Virus record (IMG/VR): IMGVR_UViG_3300011008_000003
From: a virus
Taxonomy: Duplodnaviria; Heunggongvirae; Uroviricota; Caudoviricetes
Reading direction: 5' to 3' (one strand)
DNA length: 64,000 nucleotides
Shown piece after piece: positions 17,032-60,985 of this stretch (position 1 is its first letter; each line of letters begins with the position of its first letter). Under the pieces are notes generated by a model. That model had not been told where the DNA came from. It was given only the letters and a program-made list of their open reading frames with translations, and made no database searches. A program made the translations under genes and the position numbers.

Positions 17032-17112
17032 TTCCGATAGAAATCTAATTAAGCGACTTGTTGACAAGACAAGTCGTTTTTTCTATATTAAGAGTATAAA
17101 AGAGAGGCTATT

Positions 17113-18069
17113 ATGCGAAAGATAAAAATTGCTGGTGTTCTGTCGGAAGTCAACGACTACAGTCCGTTTGTTCAGAGCATTCTGAGAATTAAAATTGACG
17201 AAATGGTGGATTACCTTAAGGGACGGTATGGCTCGCTTTATTATGTGAGAACCAACAGTTCTGTCGGTAAGGATTCTCTGTCGTTCAGCATCCGTAAAGA
17301 TCTTAACGACGTATTCGGGTTGAACTATCACAAGCCGGATATTGCACATGACTGCCAGCATCATTTTACGATGTGGACTGAATTCGAATTCGGTAAAGGT
17401 AAAAAGCACGAGGGAAAGAACACCTTTGAATTGCATACCGATGTCAGCGTACCGAGACCGCCTGAGAGATATGCCATTGAAAAGAATCCGTATTATGTGC
17501 TGTACCCGAAAGTCGGTGAAGGTTGTATTGTAAAATTCACTCAAGGGTTTTCCACAGATGAATTCATTGCCGATCCGATTAAGTTCGCCAAGCAGATTGA
17601 ATCGGCGATCGACACGACCATTCAGAGAACCAAGGATGCATGGGTAGAACTGCACGACGAACAGACCAGCCGAGACATCGACCTTATGGAAGTGCCCGAC
17701 AGCATTAAGTCTGCATTCGAAAACCATGGTGTTCCGGTAAAGTGCGAATTCAACAATACACTTACGAATACGATGATCGAAGTGACGACTGAATATAATC
17801 CGGAGCATGTCGGATATATGGAACTCCATTATATGCCGGATAAGGGTGAATGGGAATTCGATACAGTTCGCGGCGAATTTGAATTCATCGGCCACATGTT
17901 TGATTTGACCAACAGCAAATACGACAGGCGAAAGAAGGCTATCAGGAACGAGAAGTTCGGCGAACTGATGGGGTTTATCGCTGACCAATATCTTGCACAG
18001 CTGAAGATCAAGCTTGACTTCGAGGCGAAACTTAATGACTTTATGGATTGCTGGACAAAAGATGATTAA
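17113..18069 (+). CDS. Hypothetical protein
   Basis: TTGACA-N17-TATATT + GAGG RBS, 318 aa. Confidence 0.85.
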   Translation: MRKIKIAGVLSEVNDYSPFVQSILRIKIDEMVDYLKGRYGSLYYVRTNSSVGKDSLSFSIRKDLNDVFGLNYHKPDIAHDCQHHFTMWTEFEFGKGKKHEGKNTFELHTDVSVPRPPERYAIEKNPYYVLYPKVGEGCIVKFTQGFSTDEFIADPIKFAKQIESAIDTTIQRTKDAWVELHDEQTSRDIDLMEVPDSIKSAFENHGVPVKCEFNNTLTNTMIEVTTEYNPEHVGYMELHYMPDKGEWEFDTVRGEFEFIGHMFDLTNSKYDRRKKAIRNEKFGELMGFIADQYLAQLKIKLDFEAKLNDFMDCWTKDD

Positions 18070-18132
18070 GATTTTTGTTTAGTAGAATTATTAAAAATTC
18101 TATATTAAATAAAAACAAACGAGGTATTAAAT

Positions 18133-19002
18133 ATGGCTTGGAAAGAAATCTATTCGGAAAAAGGCAATTATATTGCGAAAGTTCCGTCGAACTCGATTTA
18201 CTACAGTAATCCTGACTTGCTGAGATCGATGTACAATGAATGCCGAAACGAACAACAGGAAAACGGGCTGATGTTCGGTAACGGGTACTTGAGCTATAAA
18301 AATACTGGTTCCCATGAAACGTTGGAAATCTGTCTATACCTGATAGAAAAAGTTTTTCCGTCGTATAACAGTTCTCGGTGTACCCTTCACTTCGACTACA
18401 ACAAGAATACGAAGATGTTTGATTACTATCTGGTTCCCAGTATGAGTTGTGAGGCGATGACGAACTATGTCTTGGAACATATTAAGTTCAATAAGGACAA
18501 CGTACAACACGTTTACGCTTCTGAAATCATGGATAATCCGTGGAATTACATTAAGAAACTCCTTTTTGAAGTTCAGCAAGTCTCGTATGATTACATAAAG
18601 ATTTACAAAAACAATACGCTGGAATTCGAAATTGAATATGTGGAAGACCTTGAAAATGTTAAGGAACTGGCGACCAGTCTCGGGTATACGTTCTACCTCG
18701 GTGATCACGATACCTGTGGAAAAGAGATCGCCATTTTGGACGATAAGAGTCTGAACGGATATGATAATAAAATCGAATTCGTAAGTTCTCCGTGTGGATT
18801 AGAGAGGACTGGGGGCGATTTTGAGTACGTCGCCAGTATCATGGGGTATAAAGTCGATTACGGAGATCATAGGCTTAAGTTTAAGTCTCCGAAGGACATG
18901 TTTAGTTTCATTAAGGATATGTTAATCCAGTATCACGAAGTGAAAACCAAACTGTTAAGTGTCCGACCTCAGTTTGAGGAGCACTTTTTACCCAAAGTTT
19001 AA
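18133..19002 (+). CDS. Hypothetical protein
   Basis: -10 box + GAGGT RBS, 289 aa; terminator at ~19024-19057. Confidence 0.85.
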   Translation: MAWKEIYSEKGNYIAKVPSNSIYYSNPDLLRSMYNECRNEQQENGLMFGNGYLSYKNTGSHETLEICLYLIEKVFPSYNSSRCTLHFDYNKNTKMFDYYLVPSMSCEAMTNYVLEHIKFNKDNVQHVYASEIMDNPWNYIKKLLFEVQQVSYDYIKIYKNNTLEFEIEYVEDLENVKELATSLGYTFYLGDHDTCGKEIAILDDKSLNGYDNKIEFVSSPCGLERTGGDFEYVASIMGYKVDYGDHRLKFKSPKDMFSFIKDMLIQYHEVKTKLLSVRPQFEEHFLPKV

Positions 19003-19107
19003 GATACCATAATACCTCGAAGTAGACGGTTTGGCTTAGGCCATTCCGTCTTTTTTGTTTTAAACGTTTTTATTTACAAAACATTTGGAATTTTCTATAT
19101 TAAGAAT

Positions 19108-19446
19108 ATGAACAGATACTTACCTATTAAGATTGATACTTGCAGCCATGAGTATATGATAGACCTGTGCGGCAATACCTGGACAGACAGCGGATTGCCT
19201 GTAAGTAATATAACCAAATGGAAACTGAATGACAAACCGGTAGTGTTTCGCCTGCATATCTGCGAGTTAATGAAAGCCGGCGACAAAGATATTCGGATTT
19301 TATCGGAATATGCCTTCTGCACAGGTAAGAAGGTTACTGTAGACTTTATGGGTAAAACGTATCATCCGGGTGACAGTGACTTTGAACTGATAAAGCTGCA
19401 TGATGCATTAGAAACCGAAATTGCCCTGGCAAGACTGGAGTTATAA
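19108..19446 (+). CDS. Family A small protein (leaderless)
   Basis: TTTACA-N17-TATATT-N6-ATG; DFMGKTY...IALARLEL. Confidence 0.8.
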   Translation: MNRYLPIKIDTCSHEYMIDLCGNTWTDSGLPVSNITKWKLNDKPVVFRLHICELMKAGDKDIRILSEYAFCTGKKVTVDFMGKTYHPGDSDFELIKLHDALETEIALARLEL

Positions 19447-19724
19447 TGACAATATCAACGAAAAGCGGCATCTTTGGCGACTGGTATGACTATGAAGTAA
19501 TACTGCCGTCCAACTTTATTATCTTTAAAGACCATTTTGGTTATGAGGGATTCAATATTGCGGTGAAAGCCGATGACGGATATAACTATGCGTTACGTAT
19601 CATCCAGGCAAATCTGATGCAGGTAAAATATAAAGACCAAACTTATGACATGAGGAAACCGAAAGAATATATGACGCTGAAGAGCATCCTTGAAGCCGAT
19701 ATTGTCCTGGCAAGTCTGGACTAA
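19446..19724 (+). CDS. Family A small protein
   Basis: TAATG coupling; KYKDQTY...IVLASLD. Confidence 0.8.
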   Translation: MTISTKSGIFGDWYDYEVILPSNFIIFKDHFGYEGFNIAVKADDGYNYALRIIQANLMQVKYKDQTYDMRKPKEYMTLKSILEADIVLASLD

Positions 19725-19787
19725 AATCAAAATCAAAATTGATTTAAATTAAATTCGGTTTTTTCTATATTTGAGTTAGAGGTAATT

Positions 19788-20444
19788 ATGACTAAGATTA
19801 GACCATGTGACAAACTGACAATCACCGACATCCAGACTTCCATTAAGCAGAAGGCCGTTGCGTTCGATGCGCTTGCCGAGCTTATTAAGACTTTCCCGGC
19901 TCAAGATATGCTGACATGCAAGTTGTCACATATGGACGATCCGACAAAGGAACTTATGGCGAACTGCAAGTACCGCATTCCGTTCCATATGAGGGAATCC
20001 CAGTTTATGGAAAGCAAGGGACTCGGCATGGGTTACAGGTTACTCGACACCATTCCGGCTGCAATTGACCCGGAAAGCCACTATACCATTAACATTGAGA
20101 TCGTCTGTAAGAAAGCTGGCGGTTATTCCGTTAAGTTAAAGAATGTCTGCGACTATATCTATTCGCGAATCCGTCGTAAAGAAGGCAATACTGAATTTAA
20201 GAATTATCTTAATACGGCAACCTATGAACAGGTTGGACAGGATTCTGTTTCCGCCATTATCCACCGTGAAATAAAGGGCTGTGCCAGAAAGGCATCGGCT
20301 GTCAAGCATGCGACGAGGAACGTCGAATGGCTCAGGGCTGGTCTGGCTGAACTGATTCCTGCAATGTTGGAAGACAGTCTGTATAAGACCGAACAGGCCA
20401 TGTACAATATGTCGACCGATAAGGTCTTGGGTGTTCTGAAATAA
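19788..20444 (+). CDS. Hypothetical protein, paralogue of 20513
   Basis: YRIPFHMRESQF vs YCLPFNLNDTRF; ends VLGVLK. Confidence 0.85.
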   Translation: MTKIRPCDKLTITDIQTSIKQKAVAFDALAELIKTFPAQDMLTCKLSHMDDPTKELMANCKYRIPFHMRESQFMESKGLGMGYRLLDTIPAAIDPESHYTINIEIVCKKAGGYSVKLKNVCDYIYSRIRRKEGNTEFKNYLNTATYEQVGQDSVSAIIHREIKGCARKASAVKHATRNVEWLRAGLAELIPAMLEDSLYKTEQAMYNMSTDKVLGVLK

Positions 20445-21604: not shown

Positions 21605-21717
21605 ATATGGCTGTTCCGATGAAAATTTGATTATGAATACTATTTACAATTCAATATCGATTTTCTATATTTAGAGCATAAACAAAACCAATCAACTTTT
21701 TCAAAGAGGTAATTCCT

Positions 21718-22728: not shown

Positions 22729-22877
22729 TCCGATTCGTTCAACGGGAGTCCGGCTTCGGCCGGGCTTTTCCGTTATTTTTTTCTCTATTGTTTTTATTTA
22801 CGTTTTAGCTCAGATTTTCTATATTTTAATTGAGCATGGTGCTCATTAAATAAAAGTTCAAACAAGAGGCAATTCCA

Positions 22878-24707: not shown

Positions 24708-24939
24708 ACGTTTAATAAAATTTAATTGACAACATTTAAAAATTTTTCTATCTTATAAGGCATGTTGAATATGGAATATATGAAAATTGACTTTTTTGCG
24801 AGCGATTCCAACAAGCCGAGCGCTTCCGACGAAAATCACTCAAAGATAATTGTTTACAAGTCAATTCGAAATTTCTATATTTAACCACGTAGCAAGTCGC
24901 TACATCGTTCAACAACTCAGAAAACCTAAGAGGTATCTA

Positions 24940-26310: not shown

Positions 26311-26453
26311 TGCGATTAAATTAGTGTTTATTGTATTATATAATAGTTGATTTAAATAGACCCCTAAGCACTTCCGACGAAATTTTTTATAATGTTTTTG
26401 TTGACAGTATTATATAATTTTTCTATATTTTAGGAAAATCTAAGAGGTATAAA

Positions 26454-27167
26454 ATGAGTGTAGTAATTTCCAGTGGTTTCCAAGACATCAAGCTCGCCGA
26501 TGACTCTCAGTGGTCTGTCGGTCGTAAGCGGTTCTTTGAAGACATTATGACCGAACTCCAGCGGGCGGACGAGGAATGGTGCGCAAGTCTGGTTATCGGA
26601 CGTAAGTTGGACAAAGCCGCGGCTTACTTCACCGCAGCTGACTGTCTGATTACGATTGTGATGCCGGAAGGAACCGCAACTTACGACGAGAACACCAAGG
26701 AAATCAGGTTCGCCGATGAAGACAAGTGGGTCTGTTTCGTCCACGAGGCAAGCCACTTTATGCACATGGTGGTTGACGGCGGTAAGTTCATCAGTCCGAG
26801 CTTCGAGCATCTGGAACCGATGGTACATGCGGCGTTCGACGGACACCGTAGGTCCAACACCAAGTATCTGGAATTCGAAGCAGGCTATCGCAGTCTGTAT
26901 TACAACGAGATTTACGAAATGGGTCCTAAGGAACTCTATTTCGAAAGGAATCTGAAAAATATGATGAACTACGTCAGGGTCGAAGGACTCGAGGGGTTTG
27001 TCAAGGCTCTCCAGGCTTGCAAGTCGGAAGACGAAGCCAAGGCTGTAATCGAAAACCGTAAGGAAGACTTCGAAAAGGCCCGCCAGCAGATCCAAAAGTG
27101 GTCGGACCTCGACAAGTTCACAATCACGGTTCCTGACAGCACCGTGGCTGCTCCGGCTGAAAACTAA
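26454..27167 (+). CDS. Putative zinc metallopeptidase (HExxH)
   Basis: FVHEASHFMH plus downstream EFEA motif. Confidence 0.7.
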   Translation: MSVVISSGFQDIKLADDSQWSVGRKRFFEDIMTELQRADEEWCASLVIGRKLDKAAAYFTAADCLITIVMPEGTATYDENTKEIRFADEDKWVCFVHEASHFMHMVVDGGKFISPSFEHLEPMVHAAFDGHRRSNTKYLEFEAGYRSLYYNEIYEMGPKELYFERNLKNMMNYVRVEGLEGFVKALQACKSEDEAKAVIENRKEDFEKARQQIQKWSDLDKFTITVPDSTVAAPAEN

Positions 27168-27229
27168 ATTAAAAATCGACTTACAAGATAAGTCGGTTTT
27201 TCTATATTTAGTAAAAACAAGAGGATATT

Positions 27230-28028: not shown

Positions 28029-28088
28029 ATGAAAGAAATAGAGCTCGCCAAACGTATTCAGAAAATCCTCGAAGACCTTTGGTGCTAA
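28029..28088 (+). CDS. 19-aa micro-ORF MKEIELAKRIQKILEDLWC
   Basis: Own promoter and AAAGGA RBS. Confidence 0.5.
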   Translation: MKEIELAKRIQKILEDLWC

Positions 28089-28169
28089 TCCGACGATAAA
28101 TCGACTAAGAAAAAAGTTGACAAAATCTTCAGATTATTCTATATTTAAATCAAACAATGGAGGCTATAA

Positions 28170-29306: not shown

Positions 29307-29641
29307 TGGCTACCAAGAAAACAGCTAAGCCGGTTGAAAAGCCGGCTGGCACTTACCTCGTAGTCGTGGCTGAATACGACGAATGCGGTTCTGACGGACT
29401 CGCAATCGACAATGCTCTAGGATTCGACACGCCGGAAGACGCAGCGAAGTTCATCGCGGAAGATTTCAATGACACGATCAGCAGCATGGTCGAAAGCGGA
29501 GACATCGACGAAGACAAGATGCTCGACGAAGCCAGAGTTCTCACGAAGATTAAGAAGTTGGGTGTCGAAGAGAACGCGGAATGGGACACGCCTGTAGAAA
29601 CTCTGACACAGGTCAAGTGGAAAGTCTTCCGTAAGGGCTAA
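29306..29641 (+). CDS. Hypothetical protein
   Basis: GGAGG RBS, TAATG coupling. Confidence 0.8.
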   Translation: MATKKTAKPVEKPAGTYLVVVAEYDECGSDGLAIDNALGFDTPEDAAKFIAEDFNDTISSMVESGDIDEDKMLDEARVLTKIKKLGVEENAEWDTPVETLTQVKWKVFRKG

Positions 29642-29747
29642 ACCGTCGAAAAACTTCTAAAATATAACGTTTACGACTTGAGTATAAATTACTATATTTA
29701 AGTCGTTAACGAAACAAACAAACCATCATCAAAAAGGAAAAACCAAT

Positions 29748-30174: not shown

Positions 30175-30294
30175 TTTCTGTATTAGCCTCCTTCTTTGGG
30201 TTGAAGGGAACCGGTGGATCCGTAAGGGTCTGCCGGTTTTTTATTCTTAATTATTTTTATTTACAAGATATTCAGAATTTACTATATTATAGTC

Positions 30295-30597
30295 ATGATG
30301 GAAATGAATAAGAAAATAAAAATTGTCTACAAGGATAGCTTGTCTGGTGAAACCAACGAACGCGAGATAAAGCTCCGGAACATCCTGGACCTTATGAAAC
30401 ATACGGGATTCAGTGAACTATACTTCTGGAACAATTATGTTGGCAGACTGGCCAAGATAATGATCTTCGATGATAAACTGGTTAAATGGTTTGACAAGGA
30501 AGGTGTTGAACATACCGACTACGAGAAGCTGGTAGATACGTTGTCGGTTTACGCCGAACAGACGAAACTAAAAGATGCCCTGGCAAGTCTGAATTAA
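30295..30597 (+). CDS. Hypothetical protein (leaderless), C-terminal tag
   Basis: TATATT-N6-ATG; ends ALASLN. Confidence 0.8.
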   Translation: MMEMNKKIKIVYKDSLSGETNEREIKLRNILDLMKHTGFSELYFWNNYVGRLAKIMIFDDKLVKWFDKEGVEHTDYEKLVDTLSVYAEQTKLKDALASLN

Positions 30598-30667
30598 AAC
30601 TCAATTAGATTTTGATTTACAAGACTTTTAGAATTTTCTATATTATAGTCATGCAAGAGAGGTTAAA

Positions 30668-30994
30668 ATGGTAATTCACGGTACTAATAGTGATGACATG
30701 CCGATACTGTTCGATACGACGAAGATCGATGCAACATACTGTTGCCAGAATGATCATGGTTTATGGAAAGTTGTGTTGACCCTTAGTAACGGTCTGGAAT
30801 TCTGGTTGCCGCGATATAACACTATCAAAATCAACGGCGTCAACATTATGCATGAGGGCGATATGGCTAAGTGTAAGAAGATGGCTGAGATTATCAATAC
30901 CATTATCGAACTCGAACGTCAGGACCCTCCGGTAGATATGGACAAGTTCTCGAAACTCGGTAAGGACGAGCCGAAGAGAAAAAAGTCAAAATAA
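30668..30994 (+). CDS. Family A-like small protein
   Basis: Promoter + RBS; IKINGVNI + helix. Confidence 0.78.
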   Translation: MVIHGTNSDDMPILFDTTKIDATYCCQNDHGLWKVVLTLSNGLEFWLPRYNTIKINGVNIMHEGDMAKCKKMAEIINTIIELERQDPPVDMDKFSKLGKDEPKRKKSK

Positions 30995-31050
30995 ATCGTT
31001 TACAACATTTGAATATTTTTCTATATTTAAATCAAACAAAAGAGGTTAAT

Positions 31051-32339: not shown

Positions 32340-32870
32340 ATGGCAATTTCAGCCGAAGATACAATCAAGGGCATCATCGCAGAAGCGAAGAAGGGCAACG
32401 TGACGGACCATCAGTCTGACGGCACTCTCGAATCCTGGAAGATTCCCTTCAGTGGAAGCACCTACCGCGTCGTCGTGACGGACAAGAAGGCGAAGACCGG
32501 GAAGGCGTTCAACAAGAACGATTTGCTCGTCGTGGGCGAAGACGGCAGCGAAAAGGTCGTGAACCTGGGCGAATGGAAGAAGAAGCTCTTCTACACGCTC
32601 GTCTATGCACTTCGCAAGGGAAAGGTCTTTCACAAGATTGACCAGGACCCGGCCAAGGTGAAGGCCATCAAGGCCGATATGGTCGCGAACCCGGGAAACT
32701 ACGTGAAGGGCGAAGACGAAATCACCGGTACCTTTAACGGCACGAGCATCAAGGTGACTCGCACGAAGAAGGCCTACAAGTCGGGCAAGACCCTCTGCCG
32801 CATCACGTTGGCAGAAAGTGGCGTCGTGACTTTGAAGGGTTCTCAGCTCCAGCCGTTGTTCAAGGCTTAA
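32340..32870 (+). CDS. Hypothetical basic protein
   Basis: Promoter + AAGGAG RBS. Confidence 0.85.
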   Translation: MAISAEDTIKGIIAEAKKGNVTDHQSDGTLESWKIPFSGSTYRVVVTDKKAKTGKAFNKNDLLVVGEDGSEKVVNLGEWKKKLFYTLVYALRKGKVFHKIDQDPAKVKAIKADMVANPGNYVKGEDEITGTFNGTSIKVTRTKKAYKSGKTLCRITLAESGVVTLKGSQLQPLFKA

Positions 32871-32950
32871 CCGGCGAAAATGAAACAAGATTATTCGTTT
32901 ACGCCTTGTCCATAGTTTTCTATATTTCAATATGTAAATAAGAGGTTATT

Positions 32951-33112: not shown

Positions 33113-33347
33113 CACCAGCTTCAGTGTCAACCTTTATATCCAGGATGTGGAACAGGTCGAACCGTACGAATGGGACCATACCCAGCTCGTCGTGCACTAC
33201 AGATCCATCGGCGGCGTATTCGGCGAAATCCGTATTACGGACGAAGACGATTACAAGGTCGACGGCAGGACCGCAACGTATGAAATCGCTCAACTGTTCC
33301 TCGAGAACCGTTTGACCGAAGTTCAAATCGATGCGCTTCCGGGATAA
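32982..33347 (+). CDS. Family A-like protein, true start uncertain (probably near 33078)
   Basis: YKVDGRTA...QIDALPG; 5' part overlaps the 32951 ORF. Confidence 0.6.
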   Translation: MMKGSKNPKTDESSANEKSVTEQSTPEKGGHVLTITKRDTYSGNTSFSVNLYIQDVEQVEPYEWDHTQLVVHYRSIGGVFGEIRITDEDDYKVDGRTATYEIAQLFLENRLTEVQIDALPG

Positions 33348-33428
33348 AACAAAAAATTATTCGTGCTTACGAACTACGGAAAATTTCCTATATTATAAGC
33401 ATGAAACAACAACTCAGAGGATTAACCA

Positions 33429-34061: not shown

Positions 34062-34448
34062 ATGATTAGAGAAGACATTGATATTGAAAATATCGCGAAT
34101 ACCCTGGGATTACCGTTCTACGAGGACAAGGACTGGAAATGTATCGTAATCGGGGAAGCCGACTGGGATAACACCGGGAACGATATGGAATTGGTCCTGA
34201 AATACCGTCACGGACCGTACAACAACGAATGGAAACGTACAGGGATTACTGAAGACGAACTCTTTGTTATGATTAAACAGACCGTTGCTGGAGCGTTGTC
34301 CTTGTCAGGTATTATGACCAACGAAAAGGCTTTCACCTTCATCGTGGGACTGTTGCTTGTCAAGAAAGATATTAAGGCATGGCGGGCCAACTACATGGCT
34401 GCGGAATACAACCGTGAACTTGAAAAGACCCTGGCAGCTCTGAAATAA
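34062..34448 (+). CDS. Hypothetical protein, C-terminal tag
   Basis: Promoter + RBS; ends TLAALK. Confidence 0.8.
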   Translation: MIREDIDIENIANTLGLPFYEDKDWKCIVIGEADWDNTGNDMELVLKYRHGPYNNEWKRTGITEDELFVMIKQTVAGALSLSGIMTNEKAFTFIVGLLLVKKDIKAWRANYMAAEYNRELEKTLAALK

Positions 34449-34516
34449 AATCTTAAATAGGTTTTATTTACAACATTTGAATATTTTTCTATATTTAAAT
34501 CAAACAAGAGGTTAAT

Positions 34517-34615
34517 ATGAAAGTAGAACAATTTGCCACCGTTATCCCGCTTCTTCCGTTCGACACTCATCACATTAAACTGGCGAAATACTGTTGTGCG
34601 ACGCTAGGCCGATAA
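34517..34615 (+). CDS. 32-aa micro-ORF
   Basis: Full promoter + CAAGAGGTTAAT-ATG. Confidence 0.55.
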   Translation: MKVEQFATVIPLLPFDTHHIKLAKYCCATLGR

Positions 34616-34689
34616 AAAACTCAATAAGGTTTTTGTTTATAACATTTGAATATTTTTCTATATTTAGAATACAAACAGGAGACAATAAA

Positions 34690-34974: not shown

Positions 34975-35084
34975 TTTCATGCATCAAGTATGTCCTCGGG
35001 TAATTCCGAGGATTTTTCTTTTATGAGAAATATTTACAACATTTGAATATTTTTCTATATTATAATCATCAACGAGAGATTAAA

Positions 35085-35267: not shown

Positions 35268-35371
35268 GATGTTAAAGGAAGCGAGAGCCTCCGAGGATTT
35301 TTATTTAACGAGAAGTATTTACAACATTCGATTATTTTTCTATATTTAGAATATAATGGAGGTTTTACTCA

Positions 35372-36890: not shown

Positions 36891-36977
36891 GATTCACCGA
36901 TAAAAAAGATTAAAGACTAGAAGTTTACAACTTCTGGTCTTTTTTCTATATTTAGAATATAAACAAGAGGTTATAAA

Positions 36978-38247: not shown

Positions 38248-38616
38248 ATGATTGAACAACATCACCCAGCAGATCTTGACTACTCCAACATCGATAACAT
38301 CAAGGCACAACAGTTTTTTACGGCGGTACGTGCATTCTGCCCTGGCTGTGACTTTATCCCCCAATACGCGGTTGTAGGTATTGACAAGCACAAGGTAAGC
38401 GGGTATCTCGCGGTTCATAACCCGCATAACGTAATGGACTTTGGCTTTAGCGATTCGCTGATGGTAGAATACAACAAAGTCTATGAACATGAATGGTATA
38501 ATATCTACGGAGGTTTGGTAGACGGAAAATGGCATCGGGCTACAAAGGTTGACACTCTTGACGAATTGAATAAATTCCTGAAAAGAGTTAGCGTAAGTCC
38601 GAAGAAAATGTTCTAA
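38248..38616 (+). CDS. Hypothetical protein
   Basis: Promoter + RBS. Confidence 0.8.
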   Translation: MIEQHHPADLDYSNIDNIKAQQFFTAVRAFCPGCDFIPQYAVVGIDKHKVSGYLAVHNPHNVMDFGFSDSLMVEYNKVYEHEWYNIYGGLVDGKWHRATKVDTLDELNKFLKRVSVSPKKMF

Positions 38617-38683
38617 AACAATTCACTTACAAAACAAGAAAAATCTTCTATATTTTAATCAAACAATCAACAAGAGGTAAAAC

Positions 38684-39146: not shown

Positions 39147-39551
39147 ATGGGAAAATTCGTTCTTAAGGTTTATCGTGTATGGTATGACTGGTGGACAAAG
39201 GAATATAAAAAGCCAGACCTTGACTTTGCATGGCCGATTGTCGACAGCATCAAGCTCGAGAACGTAGACTTCAATGACAGTTTTCATTTGAAATTCATAA
39301 TGGACGACTGGGGTGATAAGGAAAAATACCTGGGCTTTCCTAACCACATGCCCTGTGAAAACACGGGTATATATGACGGCGCAAACTGCAAACAGGTTAT
39401 TTCTTTTCATGACGAAAGGAATAAGGTCTTGACCCAGTTAGTAATCGACGAACGCCCGGGAAAGGAAAAACTCATTGAAGAAGTCAGGCCCTGGATAGAG
39501 CTCTATCTTGCTCATTACAAGAAGATTGCATGCCTGGCAGATCTGGCGTAA
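39147..39551 (+). CDS. Hypothetical protein, C-terminal tag
   Basis: Ends CLADLA. Confidence 0.8.
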   Translation: MGKFVLKVYRVWYDWWTKEYKKPDLDFAWPIVDSIKLENVDFNDSFHLKFIMDDWGDKEKYLGFPNHMPCENTGIYDGANCKQVISFHDERNKVLTQLVIDERPGKEKLIEEVRPWIELYLAHYKKIACLADLA

Positions 39552-39621
39552 AAATCTCAATTGTATCTATTTACAAGAAAGTTAGAATTTTCTATATTTA
39601 GAATATACAAGAGAGGTTAAT

Positions 39622-40018: not shown

Positions 40019-40297
40019 ATGAAAGTCAGCATCAACACCATCGAACACGATATTGTCAAGGTTCATCCGCTCCGTATGAACTCCAAGGGCGATACAGTCT
40101 TTAACGTCACCTATAAGAACAAGTATAACGGAAGAGAATTTCGTATGCAGGTCAACGAAGGTGATTCGGTTAAGATCATCGGCGAAGACATGCCTTGGTG
40201 GTTGCGTTCGAAGGATGAAGTAGAAAAGGTTCATGAACTCATGCAGGAAAAACTCCTCGGTCCTGAATACGTAAAGCTCAGGGATGGACTGAAATAA
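40019..40297 (+). CDS. Hypothetical protein
   Basis: Promoter + RBS. Confidence 0.8.
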   Translation: MKVSINTIEHDIVKVHPLRMNSKGDTVFNVTYKNKYNGREFRMQVNEGDSVKIIGEDMPWWLRSKDEVEKVHELMQEKLLGPEYVKLRDGLK

Positions 40298-40365
40298 AAT
40301 TCATTTCGATTTGACTTTACGAAAAGTTCAGAATTTTCTATATTATAATCAAACAAGAGGTTATT

Positions 40366-41795: not shown

Positions 41796-41922
41796 CGGGT
41801 TTGACCTCTTGGGGGAAAGCTGGGAATAAATTCCTGGCTTTTTCTCTTTACAAAACTTTTGAATATTTCTATATTTACTATGTAATCGATAATAACGTCG
41901 ATTATTTAAAAAGAGGTTATCC

Positions 41923-42159: not shown

Positions 42160-42261
42160 GTCTTGAACAGTATCGGGATAGACCGGGAATAAAATCTCGG
42201 TCTTTTTTCTTTACAAAACATTTGATTATTTCTATATTTGAAATATACAAGAGAGGTTAAT

Positions 42262-42870: not shown

Positions 42871-42936
42871 ATGTTCGCTTTGATTCCCGTGATTTCATTC
42901 CTTACATGCGTTGCGGCTTCGATTGTGTCGCAGTAA
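42871..42936 (+). CDS. 21-aa hydrophobic micro-peptide
   Basis: GGAGGT RBS; MFALIPVISFLTCVAASIVSQ. Confidence 0.5.
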   Translation: MFALIPVISFLTCVAASIVSQ

Positions 42937-43017
42937 CACCGAGGAAAAAACTTCAAAAACAATCGTTTACAAACCTTTCGAAAATTCCTATATTATGGAT
43001 ATAATCAAGAGGTTAAT

Positions 43018-45412: not shown

Positions 45413-45542
45413 GTTCAAAGTCTACAAGAAAGAAAACGGAAAGGCGAATCCTGTACTTGAAACAGTCGATTACGAAGAAGCATGCAGAAAGGAGAAGGAA
45501 TTAAAGGATAAAGGGTTCGAATCATTCGTCTGGCAAGTCTGA
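45402..45542 (+). CDS. 46-aa hypothetical protein
   Basis: GAGG RBS, overlaps upstream stop. Confidence 0.65.
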   Translation: MNRKFKVYKKENGKANPVLETVDYEEACRKEKELKDKGFESFVWQV

Positions 45543-45644
45543 TGAAAAATAATCAAATGTTTTAGTTTACAAGTCTATTGGATTTTTCTATATTTTAATC
45601 GTTCGCTAGAACATTTAGTTTAACTTAAACCGAAGAGGTCCAAT

Positions 45645-45971: not shown

Positions 45972-46114
45972 CTGTTAACCTCCGGCGGCGGATCTGTCCG
46001 CTTAGGCTCTTCCGCCGCTTTTTCTTTTAAGTTTGTTGTTTACGATTTAATTTGAATTTTCTATATTTGATAAAGCTCGAATGTCTCGAGTATAAATCAA
46101 TAAAGAGGTCTGAT

Positions 46115-46630: not shown

Positions 46631-46757
46631 AGTTTGACCTCTAAAGAGCGGGTCGTCCTAAGGCGAGGGCGATTCCGCTGCTTTTTTCTTAATTGTTTTT
46701 ATTTACATAAATATTGGATTTTTCTATATTTAGGTTAGAAACAATAAGAGGTAAAAC

Positions 46758-47114: not shown

Positions 47115-47297
47115 CTGAACAGCCTGAAGCCTGCCTGACGAACCCGGGCAGTCCGAAGGCGGCCATTTCCCAAAATTCGCGAACATGTTGAGCAATTCTG
47201 ACGATTTTTCTCTTATTGTTTCTACTTACAAGAACTTCAGAATTTACTATATTTGAATCGAACAGTTCGTTCATTAACATTCATCAGAGAGGTCCAA

Positions 47298-47558
47298 ATG
47301 GCTAACTACACTTATAACTACACCGGTTACATGTCTTTCAAGGCAGATCCGAACAAGCAGACATGGGAATTGATTGACAAAGCGCTCGACGAAGCGAAGA
47401 TCAGTCATACGAGAGCGTTTTGCAACGGCAATCTCGAGATTTGCTGTGATCAACGTTACGAAGTCGATAAGCTGTTGCGACACATCGAAATCACTCTCCA
47501 GAAGAACTATAACGGCTATGTTCTCGATACTACTATCCTGAGAACACGAAAGCTGTAG
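47298..47558 (+). CDS. Hypothetical protein (start corrected)
   Basis: GAGAGGTCCAA-ATG. Confidence 0.78.
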   Translation: MANYTYNYTGYMSFKADPNKQTWELIDKALDEAKISHTRAFCNGNLEICCDQRYEVDKLLRHIEITLQKNYNGYVLDTTILRTRKL

Positions 47559-47670
47559 TTCTTCCGTTAGAAAAATTCGAATTATACTTGTTTACAAGTT
47601 CTTTCGAATTTTCTATATTTAAATCGTTCGGTACGAACATTCAGTTTAACTTAATTCAAAGAGGTCCAAA

Positions 47671-48000
47671 ATGGCACATTCCGATATCGCAAACACCAGC
47701 CTTCCGGTTCATGACGCAAAGACCGGTACTGCCGGTTTCGTTAACAACAAAGACTTTGCTCTCGTTCTGCAGGGCTTTTTCACGCCGAAAGACGACAAGA
47801 TTCTTGAAGAAAAGGGTTTTGCCGAACCGAGCATCAAGGAACAGGCTCTGTGGTCTGCTTACGGTCTGTTTAACGAACTCGATGTTCTCGTCAGCGGGGA
47901 CAAGTCGAACGAAATGACCGTGAAGTTCGTTAAACTTCTCGACCGCTTCATCAGCGAGAACGGCGGTTGGGAATATTTCGACAAAGACGAAAACAAGTAG
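47671..48000 (+). CDS. Hypothetical protein
   Basis: Promoter + RBS. Confidence 0.8.
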   Translation: MAHSDIANTSLPVHDAKTGTAGFVNNKDFALVLQGFFTPKDDKILEEKGFAEPSIKEQALWSAYGLFNELDVLVSGDKSNEMTVKFVKLLDRFISENGGWEYFDKDENK

Positions 48001-48086
48001 CTCTTCCGTTGAAAAAACTCGATTTGAACTAGTTTACAAGACTAGTTCATTTTTCTATATTTTTGTCAAACAAACAAGAGGTTAAT

Positions 48087-48551: not shown

Positions 48552-48653
48552 GCGAAACATCGTCGGGAGCAATCCCGGCGAAAAAATCTTCAATTTTTAT
48601 GTTTACGATTCATATTGATTTTTCTATATTTTAGTCAAACAAAAGAGGTTAAT

Positions 48654-49129: not shown

Positions 49130-49258
49130 ATGTCTAATACCGACAAGAAAGAAAAGAAAAACGAACCTGAACTTTTCAGTGGCAAAAATCTCACGTGGGA
49201 CGAATTGAAGGATATGTGGGCGAAGGCTCAAAGGGGAATGACCGATAACAAATCTTAG
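49130..49258 (+). CDS. 42-aa hypothetical protein
   Basis: AGAGG RBS, directly after upstream stop. Confidence 0.6.
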   Translation: MSNTDKKEKKNEPELFSGKNLTWDELKDMWAKAQRGMTDNKS

Positions 49259-49320
49259 TTGTTTTTTGTTGACAAATCTTTTGAATTTTTCTATATTTGA
49301 AATATACAAGAGAGGTTAAT

Positions 49321-49659
49321 ATGAAACACGAAGTCATCGCATACCAACTCATCCGCGTCGAATCTGGTGATTGCTGTACTAGCGCAACAACCGATTTAAT
49401 CGCAGTAAAACAAGATCCTCAAGACCTTGCCGAAATCCTCCGTCAGGATTATAACAGTACGTTGGTCGGCGATCATCAGGAACCGAACATTAGAAAGGGA
49501 AAGAAAATCGAAATCAAAGACGGAAATCTTTGGACAAGAACTTCTGAATCAGGAGATTTGGTCTATACTTGGCAGGTAATGAGACTTAAACTGAACATCG
49601 AAGTGACATTCCCGTTACATCACCGACACGAAGACGGTGTTGAACTCGAATTGAAGTAA
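49321..49659 (+). CDS. Hypothetical protein (start corrected)
   Basis: TTGACA promoter + RBS. Confidence 0.78.
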   Translation: MKHEVIAYQLIRVESGDCCTSATTDLIAVKQDPQDLAEILRQDYNSTLVGDHQEPNIRKGKKIEIKDGNLWTRTSESGDLVYTWQVMRLKLNIEVTFPLHHRHEDGVELELK

Positions 49660-49747
49660 ATCCGTTGAAAAAACTCGAATTGAACTAGTTTAAAAGACTA
49701 GTTCATTTTTCTATATTATAATCAAACAAAACAACAAGAGGTTAATA

Positions 49748-50110
49748 ATGAAGAAAATCATCGCTGCAATCCTTCTCGTCGCTCTTACCGTGTTCGCCCA
49801 GCAGGCAGAAAACGGGATTGTGAACGTGACAAAGAACAAGTACGGAACGGAAATGACGTTCTACCCGAACACGAGCATCGAAGCCGGTCATGTCTATTCC
49901 GTGGTCATGAACGATTGTGACGGATTCAAGTCCATCGAAATCAAGTTCATGGACGGAACAATTCAATACTATTCATTCGACGAAGAGAAGATGCCGTCCG
50001 TAACGACGAAACATGAAGACAGGGTGTTGTCCTGGGAATCGCTCACGAAGCCGAAGTTCATGAAGGCATGGAACGAATACTTCAAATACTTCAAGGATTA
50101 TATCGGGTAA
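49748..50110 (+). CDS. Secreted/periplasmic protein
   Basis: MKKIIAAILLVALTVFA signal peptide. Confidence 0.8.
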   Translation: MKKIIAAILLVALTVFAQQAENGIVNVTKNKYGTEMTFYPNTSIEAGHVYSVVMNDCDGFKSIEIKFMDGTIQYYSFDEEKMPSVTTKHEDRVLSWESLTKPKFMKAWNEYFKYFKDYIG

Positions 50111-50186
50111 TACCGGTCAAAAATTCAAACACGAACTAGTTTAAAAGACTAGTTCTTTTTTCTATATTTTAATTAGAGGTTAGAAT

Positions 50187-52525: not shown

Positions 52526-52705
52526 AATGACCTCTTCTATTTGACTTAAATATAGAAAATTCCAACTCTTTAGTAAATAAATATATTTGAATATTTTCTA
52601 TCGGAACTACATTGTTTGAGGCATGTCCGATGAAAAATCTCATTTGATAATTGTTTACAATCGTTCGTGATTTTTCTATATTTTGAACATCAACAAGAGG
52701 TTAAT

Positions 52706-53017
52706 ATGAATCGCCATCAGATGTTTAACCCGGCCAACTACCAAGCCGATCCGACCAAGAACATGTGGTTGCTTTCCACGAGGAACGAAGTTCTTGACTA
52801 TTATGAAGCGGAAATGATCAAGCCCAAATACTTGCCTGGTGACGACAATACCATGCTTACGATGCTTGGGAAACATATCAAGGAGTTAAAGAAGAATCAG
52901 GCCAAGATGCCATGGGAGGCTCTCGTTCGTGAAGTCGCAGAAGGACTACTCGAAATCGATGAATGGAGTACGGACCATTATGACATCGAGGAAATTCTGA
53001 TGGAAAAATCAAAATAA
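52706..53017 (+). CDS. Hypothetical protein (start corrected)
   Basis: Promoter + RBS. Confidence 0.78.
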   Translation: MNRHQMFNPANYQADPTKNMWLLSTRNEVLDYYEAEMIKPKYLPGDDNTMLTMLGKHIKELKKNQAKMPWEALVREVAEGLLEIDEWSTDHYDIEEILMEKSK

Positions 53018-53077
53018 TTCTTGTTTACAAGTCTTTATGATTTTTCTATATTTTGAATATCAACAAGAGGTTTTAAT

Positions 53078-57866: not shown

Positions 57867-57939
57867 TTTAGACCTCTTTTGTTTATTATAATATAGAAAA
57901 TTCCAAAGAATTTGTAAATAAGGAAAAATCCAGTTTTTA

Positions 57940-58092
57940 TTACTGGATTCCCGTGATTTTGATGAATTTGATTTGTTTACGAGCACACGGAACGCAGAGA
58001 ATCAAGTTGGCGAACAGCCAAACCCTGGAGTTGTTGTATTTGATGGTGTTGGTCTTGCACTGCGGGCAACGGTAAGCCTTAGAGATTTTCAT
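57940..58092 (-). CDS. 50-aa zinc-ribbon protein (CPQC...CVPC)
   Basis: Promoter + AAGGA RBS; not in ORF track. Confidence 0.62.
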   Translation of the reverse strand: MKISKAYRCPQCKTNTIKYNNSRVWLFANLILCVPCARKQIKFIKITGIQ

Positions 58093-58230
58093 TCGGATTT
58101 CCTTAGTTAAATTAAACGACGATTAAGTTCGATTTAAATATAGAAAATTCTGAATATTTTGTAAAGACTATTAAATATAAAAAAATAACCGGAAGTCTTT
58201 CAACTCCCGGTTTTCATTAAGTAATAAGAA

Positions 58231-58710
58231 TTAACACCACGGAGATTCGAACTTGGTGTTGTTGTTGATGTTCTTGAAGATACCCTCACGGAACTTGAAA
58301 CAGTGGTCGAAGTATTCGTCCGGGAACATTCCGGAAGGCCAGTTAGTCGGATCTTCGTCGTGATACGGTTCGTCTTCCAAAGTGATTACGTTGACAATCT
58401 CGTTGACAACCTGGAATACGTCGGTGGTCGTGTAGTCAACCTGGTCCCAAGTCGTAGTTTCACCGTCGTCGGTCTGTTCACTGTGTCTCTTGATGGAGTA
58501 TTCGTATTTCTTCTTGGAATCGTCGATACCGATTTCGAGATAACCCTCGGGACAGGACGGTTCGTCCTGACAATAAGTATGGACGATGATTTTCTTACTG
58601 TCGACCTTGACATCGACCGACGGGAATCCCCTGGCGATGAAGACGAGATTACCGAAGTCGTTGTTGATACGACCGATGATGTCAAAGACGTTGATGGTGT
58701 TCTTTTTCAT
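58231..58710 (-). CDS. Hypothetical protein (start corrected)
   Basis: AGAGGTCCAAAT-ATG. Confidence 0.8.
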   Translation of the reverse strand: MKKNTINVFDIIGRINNDFGNLVFIARGFPSVDVKVDSKKIIVHTYCQDEPSCPEGYLEIGIDDSKKKYEYSIKRHSEQTDDGETTTWDQVDYTTTDVFQVVNEIVNVITLEDEPYHDEDPTNWPSGMFPDEYFDHCFKFREGIFKNINNNTKFESPWC

Positions 58711-58968
58711 ATTTGGACCTCTATTAAGAAAGATTTCGGAAATCATTAAGTTATAAAGTTTAAATAACTCTGATTTCTATTTAAATATAGAAAATTCTGA
58801 TAATTTAGTAAACCATTATATTATATAATTATTTGTCGGAGTATCTATCATATCGGAATTGCCGCTTGCGCTAGTACATGGTGCTGGTATTCCGATGAAA
58901 AAATATCAAATGTTTTAGTTTACAACTGCTTCGGTTTTTTCTATATTTAAGTCAACAAGAGGTCTGAT

Positions 58969-59325
58969 ATGAATAAAATTTACTGGAACACTGACACGGA
59001 CGTGCTCGTAGACATCAACAACGTAATCGACAAGAGCAAGATTCCGGACAATTGCGACATTTATCTTAACTTCGGGATTACAGTTGTCGACTGTTGCAAA
59101 TCTCATAGCGTGATTCCAGATTTGATTGACGTGGAAGATACGGAAATAATCAAATGTCTGTACAAGAGAGACGAAGAGGCTGAAGAATATAACGGCGAAG
59201 TCAATATGTCTTCGATTGTCATCGACATGAACGGTAACGAGATTCATAAGGATGTTCAGGCTGTAATGTACGCCGCGACGGCTACGGGAAGAATGTTAAG
59301 CAAGATGAATTCCGAAGAAAAATAA
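58969..59325 (+). CDS. Hypothetical protein
   Basis: Promoter + RBS. Confidence 0.8.
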   Translation: MNKIYWNTDTDVLVDINNVIDKSKIPDNCDIYLNFGITVVDCCKSHSVIPDLIDVEDTEIIKCLYKRDEEAEEYNGEVNMSSIVIDMNGNEIHKDVQAVMYAATATGRMLSKMNSEEK

Positions 59326-59436
59326 TCAAATATTTTAGTTTACAACTTTGTCTAGATTTTCTATATTTTAATCGTTGCAAGTCATAATCGAATGATTAAC
59401 GACTGCAGCGAATCCGATAACAACAAGAGGTCCAAA

Positions 59437-59754
59437 ATGAAAATGACGAACGAAGAACTTCAGAACTACGCAAACCAGATTGAAGAAGCCGGTTTGAAGC
59501 GCGATACCAATCCGGACGTGGCCGGCCTGCATCATTACGTAGTCCAGACGACTTACAAGAAAGCCGACGAAGACGCCGTTCTTGACGGCATGCCGGAAGC
59601 ATTCGAGGCTTGCTTCGATAACGAAAACGGCACGACCGGCGAATGCGAAGACGTCAGCATGTTCTACCTGGAAGACTGTTCGGTCACGGACGCAGCGACT
59701 ATCGTCAGCTGGCTCAAGGCCAACAAGAACTGGAAAACGTACATTGCTGACTAA
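59437..59754 (+). CDS. Hypothetical protein (start corrected)
   Basis: Promoter, leader hairpin, AAGAGGTCC RBS. Confidence 0.8.
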   Translation: MKMTNEELQNYANQIEEAGLKRDTNPDVAGLHHYVVQTTYKKADEDAVLDGMPEAFEACFDNENGTTGECEDVSMFYLEDCSVTDAATIVSWLKANKNWKTYIAD

Positions 59755-59918
59755 TCCAAGTTGAAGAAATCCGGAATGTCGTGAGATATACCGATGATTT
59801 TTTTAATAATGTTTTAGTTTACAACTTAATTAGAATTTTCTATATTTAAATCGTTGCAAGTTATAATTGAATGATTATTCAACTTGCTGCAATTCCAAAC
59901 TAAACCAAAGAGGTCCAA

Positions 59919-60200
59919 ATGATCAAGAGCTTTACCTACACGAACATGAAATCCGAAACTTCCACCAGAATCGTCAACATCGTGCACGAATCCGAAAGCA
60001 TGATTCAGGGTTTCGATTACAAGTACCTGAACTCTGATGAACAAGCGCTGGTCAACGGTGTCTACGGGAACGACCACAAGCCCACGCCGTTTCCGACCGT
60101 CCGTGTGAAGATGACTGACGAAGACTACAAGCAGCTCGGAATCAGCAAGGAACTGTTCAAGAAGGCATTCCGTACCTTCAAGAAGTCTTCCATGAAGTAA
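59919..60200 (+). CDS. Hypothetical protein
   Basis: Promoter, leader hairpin, RBS. Confidence 0.8.
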   Translation: MIKSFTYTNMKSETSTRIVNIVHESESMIQGFDYKYLNSDEQALVNGVYGNDHKPTPFPTVRVKMTDEDYKQLGISKELFKKAFRTFKKSSMK

Positions 60201-60467
60201 GGGACTTCTGTCCTACCTGCGGGGTTCGGTGACCTTCGGGAGATCCGAATCTTTCAGTCGGGCCAATCTGGGTTGCAGGCCAGTCCGACGACAGTCCCAA
60301 GACGGACCGGGAGTACCCTAGGGGAAACCGGTTCTTTATTGCTTTTCCGATAGATTTTTTTATAATGTTTATATTTACGACTTTGATTAGATTTTCTATA
60401 TTTTAGTTGTGCGAGTGATAATTGATTGATTAGTCACTCGCGGAAATTCCAAATCAAAGAGGTCCAA

Positions 60468-60815
60468 ATGGTTACTTTCAAGTCTATCAACGAAATCCAG
60501 TCTGCAATTCGTGCCAAGATCACGAGCAATTCCGAAGCAGCTATCAAGGCGATGATGAAAATCTACGCGAACCAGACGGAAGATGAACAGGATGCCGAAG
60601 CCACAAGGCACCGTAACAATGTCGGTTTCAACGGCACGGACGCCGAAATTCTGAGCAGCTTCTCGAAGCAGTACCAGAAGCGTGGCTTCCTGAGCCCGAA
60701 GCAGAACGCCATCCTGATGAAGAAAATCGGGAAGTATGCAGGTCAGCTGACCAAGCAGGCGATCGCCAACAAGATGTACGTGAAGACCGGCGACGTCTGG
60801 ATCGTCAACAAATAG
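60468..60815 (+). CDS. Conserved phage hypothetical protein (QTxDEQ...NxVGF...D...LSxKQ...KYxxQL)
   Basis: Motif; promoter, leader hairpin, RBS; start corrected. Confidence 0.82.
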   Translation: MVTFKSINEIQSAIRAKITSNSEAAIKAMMKIYANQTEDEQDAEATRHRNNVGFNGTDAEILSSFSKQYQKRGFLSPKQNAILMKKIGKYAGQLTKQAIANKMYVKTGDVWIVNK

Positions 60816-60985
60816 GTTTCTGGACCTCCTGCGGGTCGCTCCGGTATCGGGGCGATTCCGCTTATTTTTTTATATTTTATCTTGTTTACAAGTTTATTAT
60901 AATTTTTTATATTTTAATTGAACAAGTGATAATTAAATAATTATTTACTTGCTGAAACTCCAAACAAAATCAAAGAGGTCCAATT

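Follow-up and report, generated by a model that had tools for sequence, protein, structure and literature searches.

The closest described counterparts of the sequences discussed here are the promoter-early stem-loop cassettes (PeSLs) of the T4-type phages RB49/phi1, T4/PST and KVP40/nt-1 (PMC2839356, PMC4122927). Found in variable genome regions, PeSLs combine strong early promoters and an A/T-rich upstream part with an upstream stop codon, alternative stem-loop sites, and a Shine-Dalgarno sequence with ATG (PMC2839356, PMC4122927), and their conserved G/C stem has been proposed to bind a protein that aids recombination (PMC2839356). Here we describe a long array of PeSL-like cassettes in a 64,000-nucleotide stretch of the IMG/VR virus record IMGVR_UViG_3300011008_000003 (the whole stretch is called the window below), which is part of the genome of an uncultured giant phage related to T4. 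About three quarters of these cassettes carry a short box, CYG (Y standing for C or T), at a fixed distance upstream of the -35 hexamer, and this box is the subject of the present text.

The upstream promoter (UP) element, the site of the C-terminal domain of the RNA polymerase alpha subunit (alpha-CTD), extends from -59 to -38 and is A/T-rich, with sequences of the type AAAWWTWTTTT..AAA. Class I activators have sites such as that of CRP, centred at -61.5, or Fis site I of rrnB P1, centred at -71. The consensus of T4 early promoters comprises a -35 GTTTAC, an extended -10 with TGn, the -10 TATAAT, and A-rich stretches near -42 and -52. These promoters, used at once by the host polymerase, are also known to hold "additional regions of consensus" beyond the sigma-70 elements, and those with UP-like upstream regions are favoured by Alt-modified polymerase (PMC2988021).

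Promoter cassettes of the window

Promoters were picked by a -35 match of at least 5/6 to TTKACA, a 17-bp spacer and TATAWT, without any use of the box. The selection returned 62 plus-strand promoters with exactly the 17-bp spacer, 58 of them inside 17034-60890, and, when spacers of 16-18 bp were allowed, 65 plus-strand and 12 minus-strand candidates. The words promoter and transcription start therefore refer throughout to predictions from the hexamers. Positions are counted from the first base of the -35 hexamer (position 0), and subtracting 35 converts them into promoter numbering.

Between about 11 and 61 kb, nearly every small gene has a cassette of its own. In order, such a cassette consists of G (-33), five variable bases, CYG (-27 to -25), an A/T tract (-21 to -17), the -35 gTTTACa, a 17-bp spacer ending in TTTTC, the -10 TATATT, a short leader, AAGAGGT and ATG. 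In promoter numbering this places the G at -68, CYG at -62 to -60, and an A5 or T5 tract at -56 to -52 followed by TT, with A at -46/-45 and T-rich sequence up to -37. The core TTTACA-N17-TATATT is near-invariant across the 62 plus-strand promoters in the 64 kb; as the spacer measures 17 bp in nearly all promoters, the box may follow either the -35 or the -10.

A box at a fixed position

CYG stands exactly 27 nucleotides before the -35 in 44 of the 62 promoters, 28 nucleotides before it in four and 26 in one, while every other offset from -60 to -5 holds between 0 and 7 copies. With a background of 0.030 per position, about 1.9 would be expected at one offset instead of the 44 seen (binomial P = 8e-53), and only one of these, at 62621 inside a minus-strand operon, is probably a chance match. 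Inside 17034-60890, the interval to which an initial annotation of this DNA had assigned the box, the count at -27 is 41 of 58 (32 CCG and 9 CTG). That annotation had listed eleven coordinate pairs of box and -35, all of which proved exact, and its estimate of more than 30 copies at this spacing, with a few displaced by one nucleotide to either side, is confirmed and surpassed by the counts obtained from hexamers alone. Full copies of its best string, TCCGAYGAAAA, number only four, and all of them lie at promoters.

The box does not stand by itself. G is found at -33 in 50 of 65 promoters (P = 2e-20) and accompanies 42 of the 43 real boxes, so that the conserved unit is better written as G-N5-CYG. 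Neither this G, nor the other biased positions, nor the boxes on the minus strand had been noticed in the initial annotation. In the alignment of 65 promoters, C-32 is present in 31, T-28 in 37, C-27 in 52, C-26 in 40, T-26 in 12 and G-25 in 49, with A-24 biased as well. The tract from -21 to -17, which the box directly adjoins and which resembles a UP element, has A in 39-48 promoters and T in almost all others (A or T together 60-62 of 65), and A is also enriched at -11/-10. The alignment on the -35 with positional information content, which the initial annotation had suggested as a check, gives about 1 bit per box position against about 0 in the flanks. More precisely, G-33, C-27, Y-26 and G-25 hold 0.6-1.2 bits, and about 0 bits are left at -31 to -29, at -23 and everywhere beyond -37. 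Information confined to single positions in this way indicates a position-specific element and not a duplicated block.

The distance to the -35 is locked, whereas the box stands at varying distances from the stop codon of the upstream gene, as does the -10 from ATG. At four minus-strand promoters, the orientation of the box with respect to the -35 is retained. A search of the plus strand with a 22-column matrix built from the element gave 55 hits of at least 10 bits, of which 40 are at called promoters and about 9 at weaker promoter variants; the leftover of about 6 compares with 6.4 in shuffles, leaving no free-standing copies beyond expectation. The flat flanks, the fixed spacing, the lack of free copies and the conservation in relatives described below all bear out the proposal that this is a selected, position-locked third promoter element at about -61.

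The array and its cassettes are as follows, each with the start of its triplet and of its -35 hexamer:

11214-60913, plus strand: array of one-gene early promoter cassettes, from the promoter alignment
11214-11275, plus strand: cassette, CCG 11220, -35 11247 (TTTACT), G 11214, mixed tract
15966-16027, plus strand: cassette, CCG 15972, -35 15999, terminator hairpin round the -35
17028-17089, plus strand: cassette, CCG 17034, -35 17061, hairpin round the -35, box 2 nt past the stop codon
19040-19101, plus strand: cassette, CCG 19046, -35 19073, T-run type, CCG in the terminator 3' arm
19710-19771, plus strand: cassette, CTG 19716, -35 19743, CTG is the in-frame Leu of ...VLASLD-stop
21610-21671, plus strand: cassette, CCG 21616, -35 21643, A-run, intergenic
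22764-22825, plus strand: cassette, CCG 22770, -35 22797, T-run terminator type
24820-24881, plus strand: cassette, CCG 24826, -35 24853, A-run, intergenic
26368-26429, plus strand: cassette, CCG 26374, -35 26401 (TTGACA), T-run without hairpin
27147-27208, plus strand: cassette, CCG 27153, -35 27180, in-frame Pro codon, hairpin round the -35
28084-28145, plus strand: cassette, CCG 28090, -35 28117 (TTGACA)
29637-29698, plus strand: cassette, CCG 29643, -35 29670
30227-30288, plus strand: cassette, CCG 30233, -35 30260, T-run terminator after tRNA-Leu
30583-30644, plus strand: cassette, CTG 30589, -35 30616, in-frame Leu of ...ALASLN-stop
32865-32926, plus strand: cassette, CCG 32871, -35 32898
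33333-33394, plus strand: cassette, CCG 33339, weaker -35 CTTACG 33366 (under the -35 cut-off; a hit of the box matrix, and one of the pairs listed initially)
34434-34495, plus strand: cassette, CTG 34440, -35 34467, in-frame Leu of ...TLAALK-stop
34603-34664, plus strand: cassette, CCG 34609, -35 34636
35000-35061, plus strand: cassette, CCG 35006, -35 35033, T-run terminator CCTCGG..CCGAGG
35285-35346, plus strand: cassette, CCG 35291, -35 35318, T-run
36891-36952, plus strand: cassette, CCG 36897, -35 36924, hairpin round the -35
38593-38654, plus strand: cassette, CCG 38599, -35 38626
39537-39598, plus strand: cassette, CTG 39543, -35 39570, in-frame Leu of ...CLADLA-stop
40283-40344, plus strand: cassette, CTG 40289, -35 40316, in-frame Leu of ...LRDGLK-stop
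41814-41875, plus strand: cassette, CTG 41820, -35 41847, box opens the 5' arm of a hairpin between box and -35
42177-42238, plus strand: cassette, CCG 42183, -35 42210, box opens the 5' arm of a hairpin between box and -35
42933-42994, plus strand: cassette, CCG 42939, -35 42966
45533-45594, plus strand: cassette, CTG 45539, -35 45566, CTGGCAAGTCTGA as at 30580 in another frame, TGA is the stop
46006-46067, plus strand: cassette, CCG 46012, -35 46039, T-run terminator
46669-46730, plus strand: cassette, CCG 46675, -35 46702, T-run terminator
47192-47253, plus strand: cassette, CTG 47198, -35 47225, T-run without hairpin
47558-47619, plus strand: cassette, CCG 47564, -35 47591
48000-48061, plus strand: cassette, CCG 48006, -35 48033, hairpin round the -35
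48569-48630, plus strand: cassette, CCG 48575, -35 48602
49236-49297, plus strand: cassette, CCG 49242, -35 49269 (TTGACA)
49656-49717, plus strand: cassette, CCG 49662, -35 49689, hairpin round the -35
50107-50168, plus strand: cassette, CCG 50113, -35 50140, hairpin round the -35
52621-52682, plus strand: cassette, CCG 52627, -35 52654
52991-53052, plus strand: cassette, CTG 52997, -35 53024, in-frame Leu codon
58886-58947, plus strand: cassette, CCG 58892, -35 58919
59306-59367, plus strand: cassette, CCG 59312, -35 59339, G-33 absent, alone among the real boxes
59785-59846, plus strand: cassette, CCG 59791, -35 59818, T-run
60341-60402, plus strand: cassette, CCG 60347, -35 60374, T-run
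60852-60913, plus strand: cassette, CCG 60858, -35 60885, T-run terminator
58784-58845, minus strand: cassette, -35 start 58812, CCG 58839-58837
58137-58198, minus strand: cassette, -35 start 58165, CCG 58192-58190, T-run
52549-52610, minus strand: cassette, -35 start 52577, CCG 52604-52602
11127-11188, minus strand: cassette, -35 start 11155, CCG 11182-11180, divergent partner of the 11247 promoter
30971-31027, plus strand: variant displaced by one, CCG 30971, -35 30999 (28 nt)
34835/34863, 41064/41092 and 53779/53807 (box/-35): further 28-nt variants
37348/37374 (box/-35): 26-nt variant

Terminators, hairpins and reading frames around the box

The box is mostly no more than about 10 nt away from the stop codon of the upstream gene, and a signal acting in RNA, at the 3' end of the upstream message, has to be considered, be it the base of a terminator, a processing site or a stability element. 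In 13 of the 62 cassettes, all of the T-run kind, the box does form the 3' foot of a true terminator stem (-14.3 kcal/mol), whose 3' arm contains CCG and is followed by the T-run, and only these combine a G+C hairpin with a U-run as an intrinsic terminator does. The 36 A-run cassettes fold at -6.4 kcal/mol, compared with -5.8 for random 42-mers, and keep CYG in 25 and G-33 in 29 of the 36 cases without any structure above background. In the window and in the related genomes G001 and G003, pairing does not exceed column expectation either between columns up to 30 nt apart or in nested series tried at four registers, and a conserved hairpin was rejected as the basis of the box; the only pairing-type signal in the three genomes is the co-occurrence of G-33 with C-27/-26. 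A search of the window with Rfam 15 at the gathering score returned only two tRNAs and the cow-rumen-2 motif, none of them at a cassette. Lacking covariation and an Rfam match, and having no need of a fixed distance to the next -35, an RNA signal is an improbable explanation.

Terminators occupy three sites relative to the box. In the 13 cassettes above they lie upstream and end at the box, which is the 3' base of their stem. In a few others, for example at 41820 and 42183, they start at the box, their 5' base, and lie ahead of the -35, and in about 9 they enclose the -35 hexamer, the TTTT that precedes the -10 serving as their U-run. The box keeps to -27 whichever site is used, so that the terminators are built around the box. 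Hairpins round the -35 were observed at 15983-16027, 17045-17089, 27164-27208, 36908-36952, 48017-48061, 49673-49717 and 50124-50168, where the -35 lies in or beside the loop and the U-run is the TTTT preceding CTATATT; in such cases the terminator and the next promoter occupy the same 40 bp.

The claim that the triplet holds its place in intergenic DNA, in terminator stems and in the last codons of genes is likewise upheld by the counts. At 36 of 58 promoters the box falls outside the upstream open reading frame (ORF, at least 40 aa) and at 22 inside it, in all three frames, and a coding-frame origin was rejected on these numbers. Where the box is in frame, its codon is CTG (Leu) in 6 of 11 cases, while outside ORFs CCG prevails over CTG by 26 to 2, so that coding and box constraints are satisfied together. 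The in-frame CTG is the last Leu of a C-terminal tail common to many early proteins (..LASLN-stop, ..LAALK-stop, ..LADLA-stop), in which a GCA (Ala) codon provides G-33/C-32. The same CTGGCAAGTCTGA ends two genes in different frames (at 30580, and at 45539 with TGA as stop), which argues that the sequence is held at the DNA level and that coding makes use of the tolerated T variant.

Such tails raise the possibility that the box is a by-product, either a remnant of tail codons (..L-A-x-L-x-stop) or a sequence hitch-hiking in recently copied cassettes. The Leu codons of tails such as LASLN and LAALK and the GCA next to them would be expected in that case, but the boxes outside ORFs would then be read as Pro, boxes are also found in the other two frames, nothing is conserved upstream of -37 in the pooled set, and orthologous as well as paralogous cassettes are near saturation at neighbouring positions. 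This explanation is the least probable of those considered and is already largely refuted by the counts.

The motif CTGGCA(A/G)NTCTG was found to end unrelated genes at 19706-19724, 30579-30597, 34430-34448, 39533-39551 and 45529-45547. In four of these places it codes for L-A-x-L of the shared tail, and the gene ending at 45529 uses a different frame and stops at the TGA within the box. As the last codons of the tail are the upstream edge of the cassette, cassette exchange might spread the tail.

Conservation in relatives

Relatives found in IMG/VR are rumen phage genomes of 411-416 kb, one of which (G004) is 98% complete by CheckV estimate and another (G003) has terminal repeats. G001 shares 73% amino-acid identity with the window in a vWA-like gene, and in 80 promoters from 60 kb of its sequence the counts are 47 for G-34, 59 for G-33, 50 for C-27, 55 for Y-26 and 50 for G-25, followed by A at -20 to -17 and then TT. 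In G003, whose gp46 is 59% identical to that of the window, 100 early-region promoters have G-33 in 69 and CTGA at -28 to -25 in 66-69 at each position. The triplet of G003 is thus one base farther from the -35 than in the window, while the G-33 position is the same. Reading this CTGA as a stop codon was rejected, as its TGA ends no more than 7 of the 47 upstream ORFs. In further IMG/VR contigs, none of them the contig of the window itself, the box is of one or the other type, at -27 or -28. The form of the box follows the lineage, being TCCGA at -28 to -24 in the window, CYGAAA at -27 in G001 and G004, and ATCTGA with C at -28 in G003, G002 and several other contigs, with G-33 fixed in all.

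In 25 orthologous promoter pairs of the window and G001, unconstrained positions are 25-45% identical. Identity in the same pairs reaches 72% at G-33, 60% at C-27, 56% at G-25, 60-96% in the A tract and 72-100% in the hexamers. The box is therefore retained, although under looser constraint than the core, and in some cases it has disappeared or moved by one base.

Conservation ends abruptly just upstream of the box, as would be expected if the box were a recombination or boundary signal at the upstream edge of a mobile PeSL-like cassette, its exchange perhaps aided by a DNA-binding protein. The array does resemble the PeSL-rich hyperplastic regions of T4-type phages, where cassette recombination has been shown (PMC2839356, PMC4122927), and both the overlap of the box with the final codons of the tail that many early proteins share and the presence of CTGGCAAGTCTGA at the ends of two genes in different frames could be understood in this way. 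On the other hand, the benefit of recombination is weak and second-order, and would hardly hold four positions at 75-80% amid randomised neighbours; furthermore, a recombination signal needs no 1-bp accuracy relative to the -35. We regard this origin of the box as rather doubtful.

Restriction to one promoter class

In G004, promoters with the same hexamers are distributed all round the genome, the early array occupying 340-402 kb. CYG is present at -27 in 36 of 76 promoters of the early array and in 1 of 110 elsewhere (Fisher P = 5e-16). The box-less class, with about 110 copies outside the early array, has the form aaaa-GGG-TTGACAAA...TTTT-CTATATT. Since promoters with the same hexamers do without the box elsewhere, it is not needed for core recognition and labels one class of promoters, and this restriction argues against a general requirement of host RNA polymerase and for a class-specific reader.

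Promoters of the box-less class often have a hairpin round the -35, formed by pairing of GGG..CCC across it, and a possible example in the window is located at 572 on the minus strand. A small paralogous gene array at 11852-13893 was also observed, in which AATAATTCTATATTAAG is present 3-5 nt before each ATG with no upstream -35 hexamer; the CTATATT found there may be a lone promoter of a different, possibly late, type, or part of a coupled junction.

The class restriction also bears on the notion that the box is a structural extension of the UP element, in which no dedicated protein takes part and a G/C step fixes the curvature or the upstream limit of alpha-CTD, so that the polymerase docks in register. 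Such a role is suggested by the adjoining near-consensus UP-like tract (A5 then TT at -56 to -50, A at -46/-45, T-rich to -37), by T-runs standing in for A-runs at the same place, and by the location of -61 one helical turn upstream of the alpha-CTD position -51/-52 (for T4, PMC2988021). It would leave unexplained the near-obligate pairing of G-33 with CYG-27, the tolerance of only C or T at -26, the promoters with the same core that have no box elsewhere, and the T4 early promoters, which in the same scan have no such G/C positions. We consider a purely structural role unlikely, yet the strongest of the alternatives.

A possible reader of the box

Fixed spacing and orientation, independence of RNA structure and reading frame, restriction to a class, a lineage-specific form and the neighbouring UP-like tract together fit a DNA site that is read by a protein. 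In our preferred reading, to which we assign a probability of about 0.4, the box would be a class-specific upstream element acting at the level of DNA and recognized by a putative protein. It could represent the distal part of a composite upstream element of immediate-early one-gene cassettes, where a sequence-specific protein would occupy G-N5-CYG (about -69 to -60) beside alpha-CTD on the adjoining A/T tract. This arrangement corresponds to a class I activator site, the position invoked in the initial annotation, which had suggested a phage activator or an RNA polymerase subunit as the putative reader. The outcome might be a stronger recruitment of host sigma-70 RNA polymerase right after infection or, equally possible, a handle for the later shut-off of this promoter class. 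As the promoters must fire on entry, the reader would have to come from the host, from the virion or from among the earliest products of infection. Lineage-specific box forms (CCG at -27 in the window, CYG at -27 in its nearest relative, CTGA at -28 in a remoter one), together with the promoters of identical hexamers outside the array that have no box, suggest that the reader is probably specified by the phage, and either packed in the virion or made very early.

Several points weigh against a dedicated phage reader. The transcription starts rest on hexamers only, the reader is hypothetical and no candidate for it was found; an Alt-type ADP-ribosyltransferase (PF03496) was not found in two relatives. 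A host factor, or a promoter feature common to the whole host genome, might be involved instead. Constraint on the box is weaker than on the hexamers, and some orthologous promoters have lost it or hold it 1 bp off its usual place, so that its role would be modulatory at best. Moreover, the spacing between G and CYG varies by 1 bp among lineages, which is unusual for a two-part protein site, and the cassettes are paralogous and may recombine, so that their copies are not fully independent.

A variant of the protein-read element, raised as a more speculative possibility in the initial annotation, involves modified cytosine. The thymidylate-synthase homolog (ThyA) of the window matches the equivalog TIGR03284 with 267 bits. 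Its VPYDIASY corresponds to VPFNIASY in solved synthases, so that Asp takes the place of Escherichia coli Asn177; this Asp aligns with the Asp of T4 deoxycytidylate (dCMP) hydroxymethylase. A change of Asn to Asp at that position shifts the specificity of thymidylate synthase toward dCMP. The homolog may therefore be a dCMP methylase or hydroxymethylase, and the phage DNA may contain modified cytosine. If 5-methyl- or 5-hydroxymethyl-dCMP were produced, C and T at Y-26 would both bear a group on carbon 5, and a phage protein, from the virion or among the first made, might land on the box by reading the 5-substituted pyrimidine at -61. Such a protein could tell phage early promoters from host DNA, switching the class on or later off. 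While cytosine modification in this phage is plausible from its residues, the link to the box is speculation, and we hold it to be highly improbable.

In T4, the role of the extra conserved promoter positions, the preference of Alt and the mechanism of early shut-off are still unclear (PMC2988021). Against this background, the uncultured clade of rumen phages of about 400 kb offers a sharply defined class element that is not A/T-rich, lies at a constant position beyond the UP element and is present in more than 40 copies per genome. An element that is fixed in position, varies by lineage and is specific to a class has the signature expected of a dedicated reader protein, and the box provides a concrete bait sequence for finding it. 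In annotation, it separates promoters of the early array from those with the same hexamers elsewhere in these genomes. Even a purely structural role, as an extension of the UP element, would widen what is known of how far upstream promoter recognition reaches.

The window and its phage

Further genes of the window are:

646-1491, minus strand: thymidylate-synthase homolog (ThyA)
2007-3038, minus strand: Mre11/gp47-like phosphoesterase
4241-6004, minus strand: Rad50/gp46-like ATPase
7016-8635: GroEL

Two tRNAs are encoded as well. The gp46 of the window is about 30% identical to those of T4-type phages in GenBank, and no nucleotide relatives of the window were found among INPHARED phages by megablast or blastn. 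Between the gp46-like gene and GroEL, at 6423-6528 on the plus strand, a full-length match to the Rfam orphan motif cow-rumen-2 RNA was observed, with 111 bits against a gathering score of 66. This match places a motif of unknown function in a giant T4-related phage and points to a rumen origin of the phage.

Comparison with known systems

As in class I activation, the box lies just upstream of the alpha-CTD/UP site, on DNA that the polymerase itself does not read specifically, but the element is asymmetric (G-N5-CYG). The patterns of CRP, Fis, IHF, LexA and sigma-54, compared with the box by eye as consensus sequences, do not fit and were rejected. The A5 or T5 tract, the following TT and the proximal A run beside the box are UP-like, with T-runs replacing A-runs, whereas the box itself is G/C and is located upstream of -59, outside the UP element.

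The early promoters of T4 share with the cassettes the gTTTAC with G just before it and an A/T-rich upstream region, and the -35 is TTTACW as in T4/PST. They differ in that TGn is absent here, where the spacer ends in TTTTC, and in the -10, which is TATATT instead of the TATAAT of T4. In the T4 genome, where the same procedure picked 27 sites, some of which are chance matches, all columns from -50 to -6 stay at or below 0.25 bits and no G/C box is seen, and no description of a fixed G/C box at about -61 was found in the literature searched.

Taken whole, the cassettes correspond to PeSLs. Both belong to T4-related phages. In the window, small genes follow one another in a long array, every one behind a strong early promoter of the sigma-70 type, and the cassettes include a stop codon of the upstream gene, an A/T-rich stretch before the -35, terminators, where present, at varying sites, and a Shine-Dalgarno sequence with ATG. 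In PeSLs the conserved G/C parts are stems, and a G/C box at a fixed position is not part of their descriptions; here a terminator stem ends at the box in 13 of 62 cassettes, is wrapped round the -35 in about 9 and lies between box and -35 in a few, while the 36 A-run cassettes have no stem-loop at the box, which remains fixed wherever the terminator lies. As the box appears neither in the descriptions of PeSLs nor in the scan of T4, it is classed as a new variation on the T4-type cassette.

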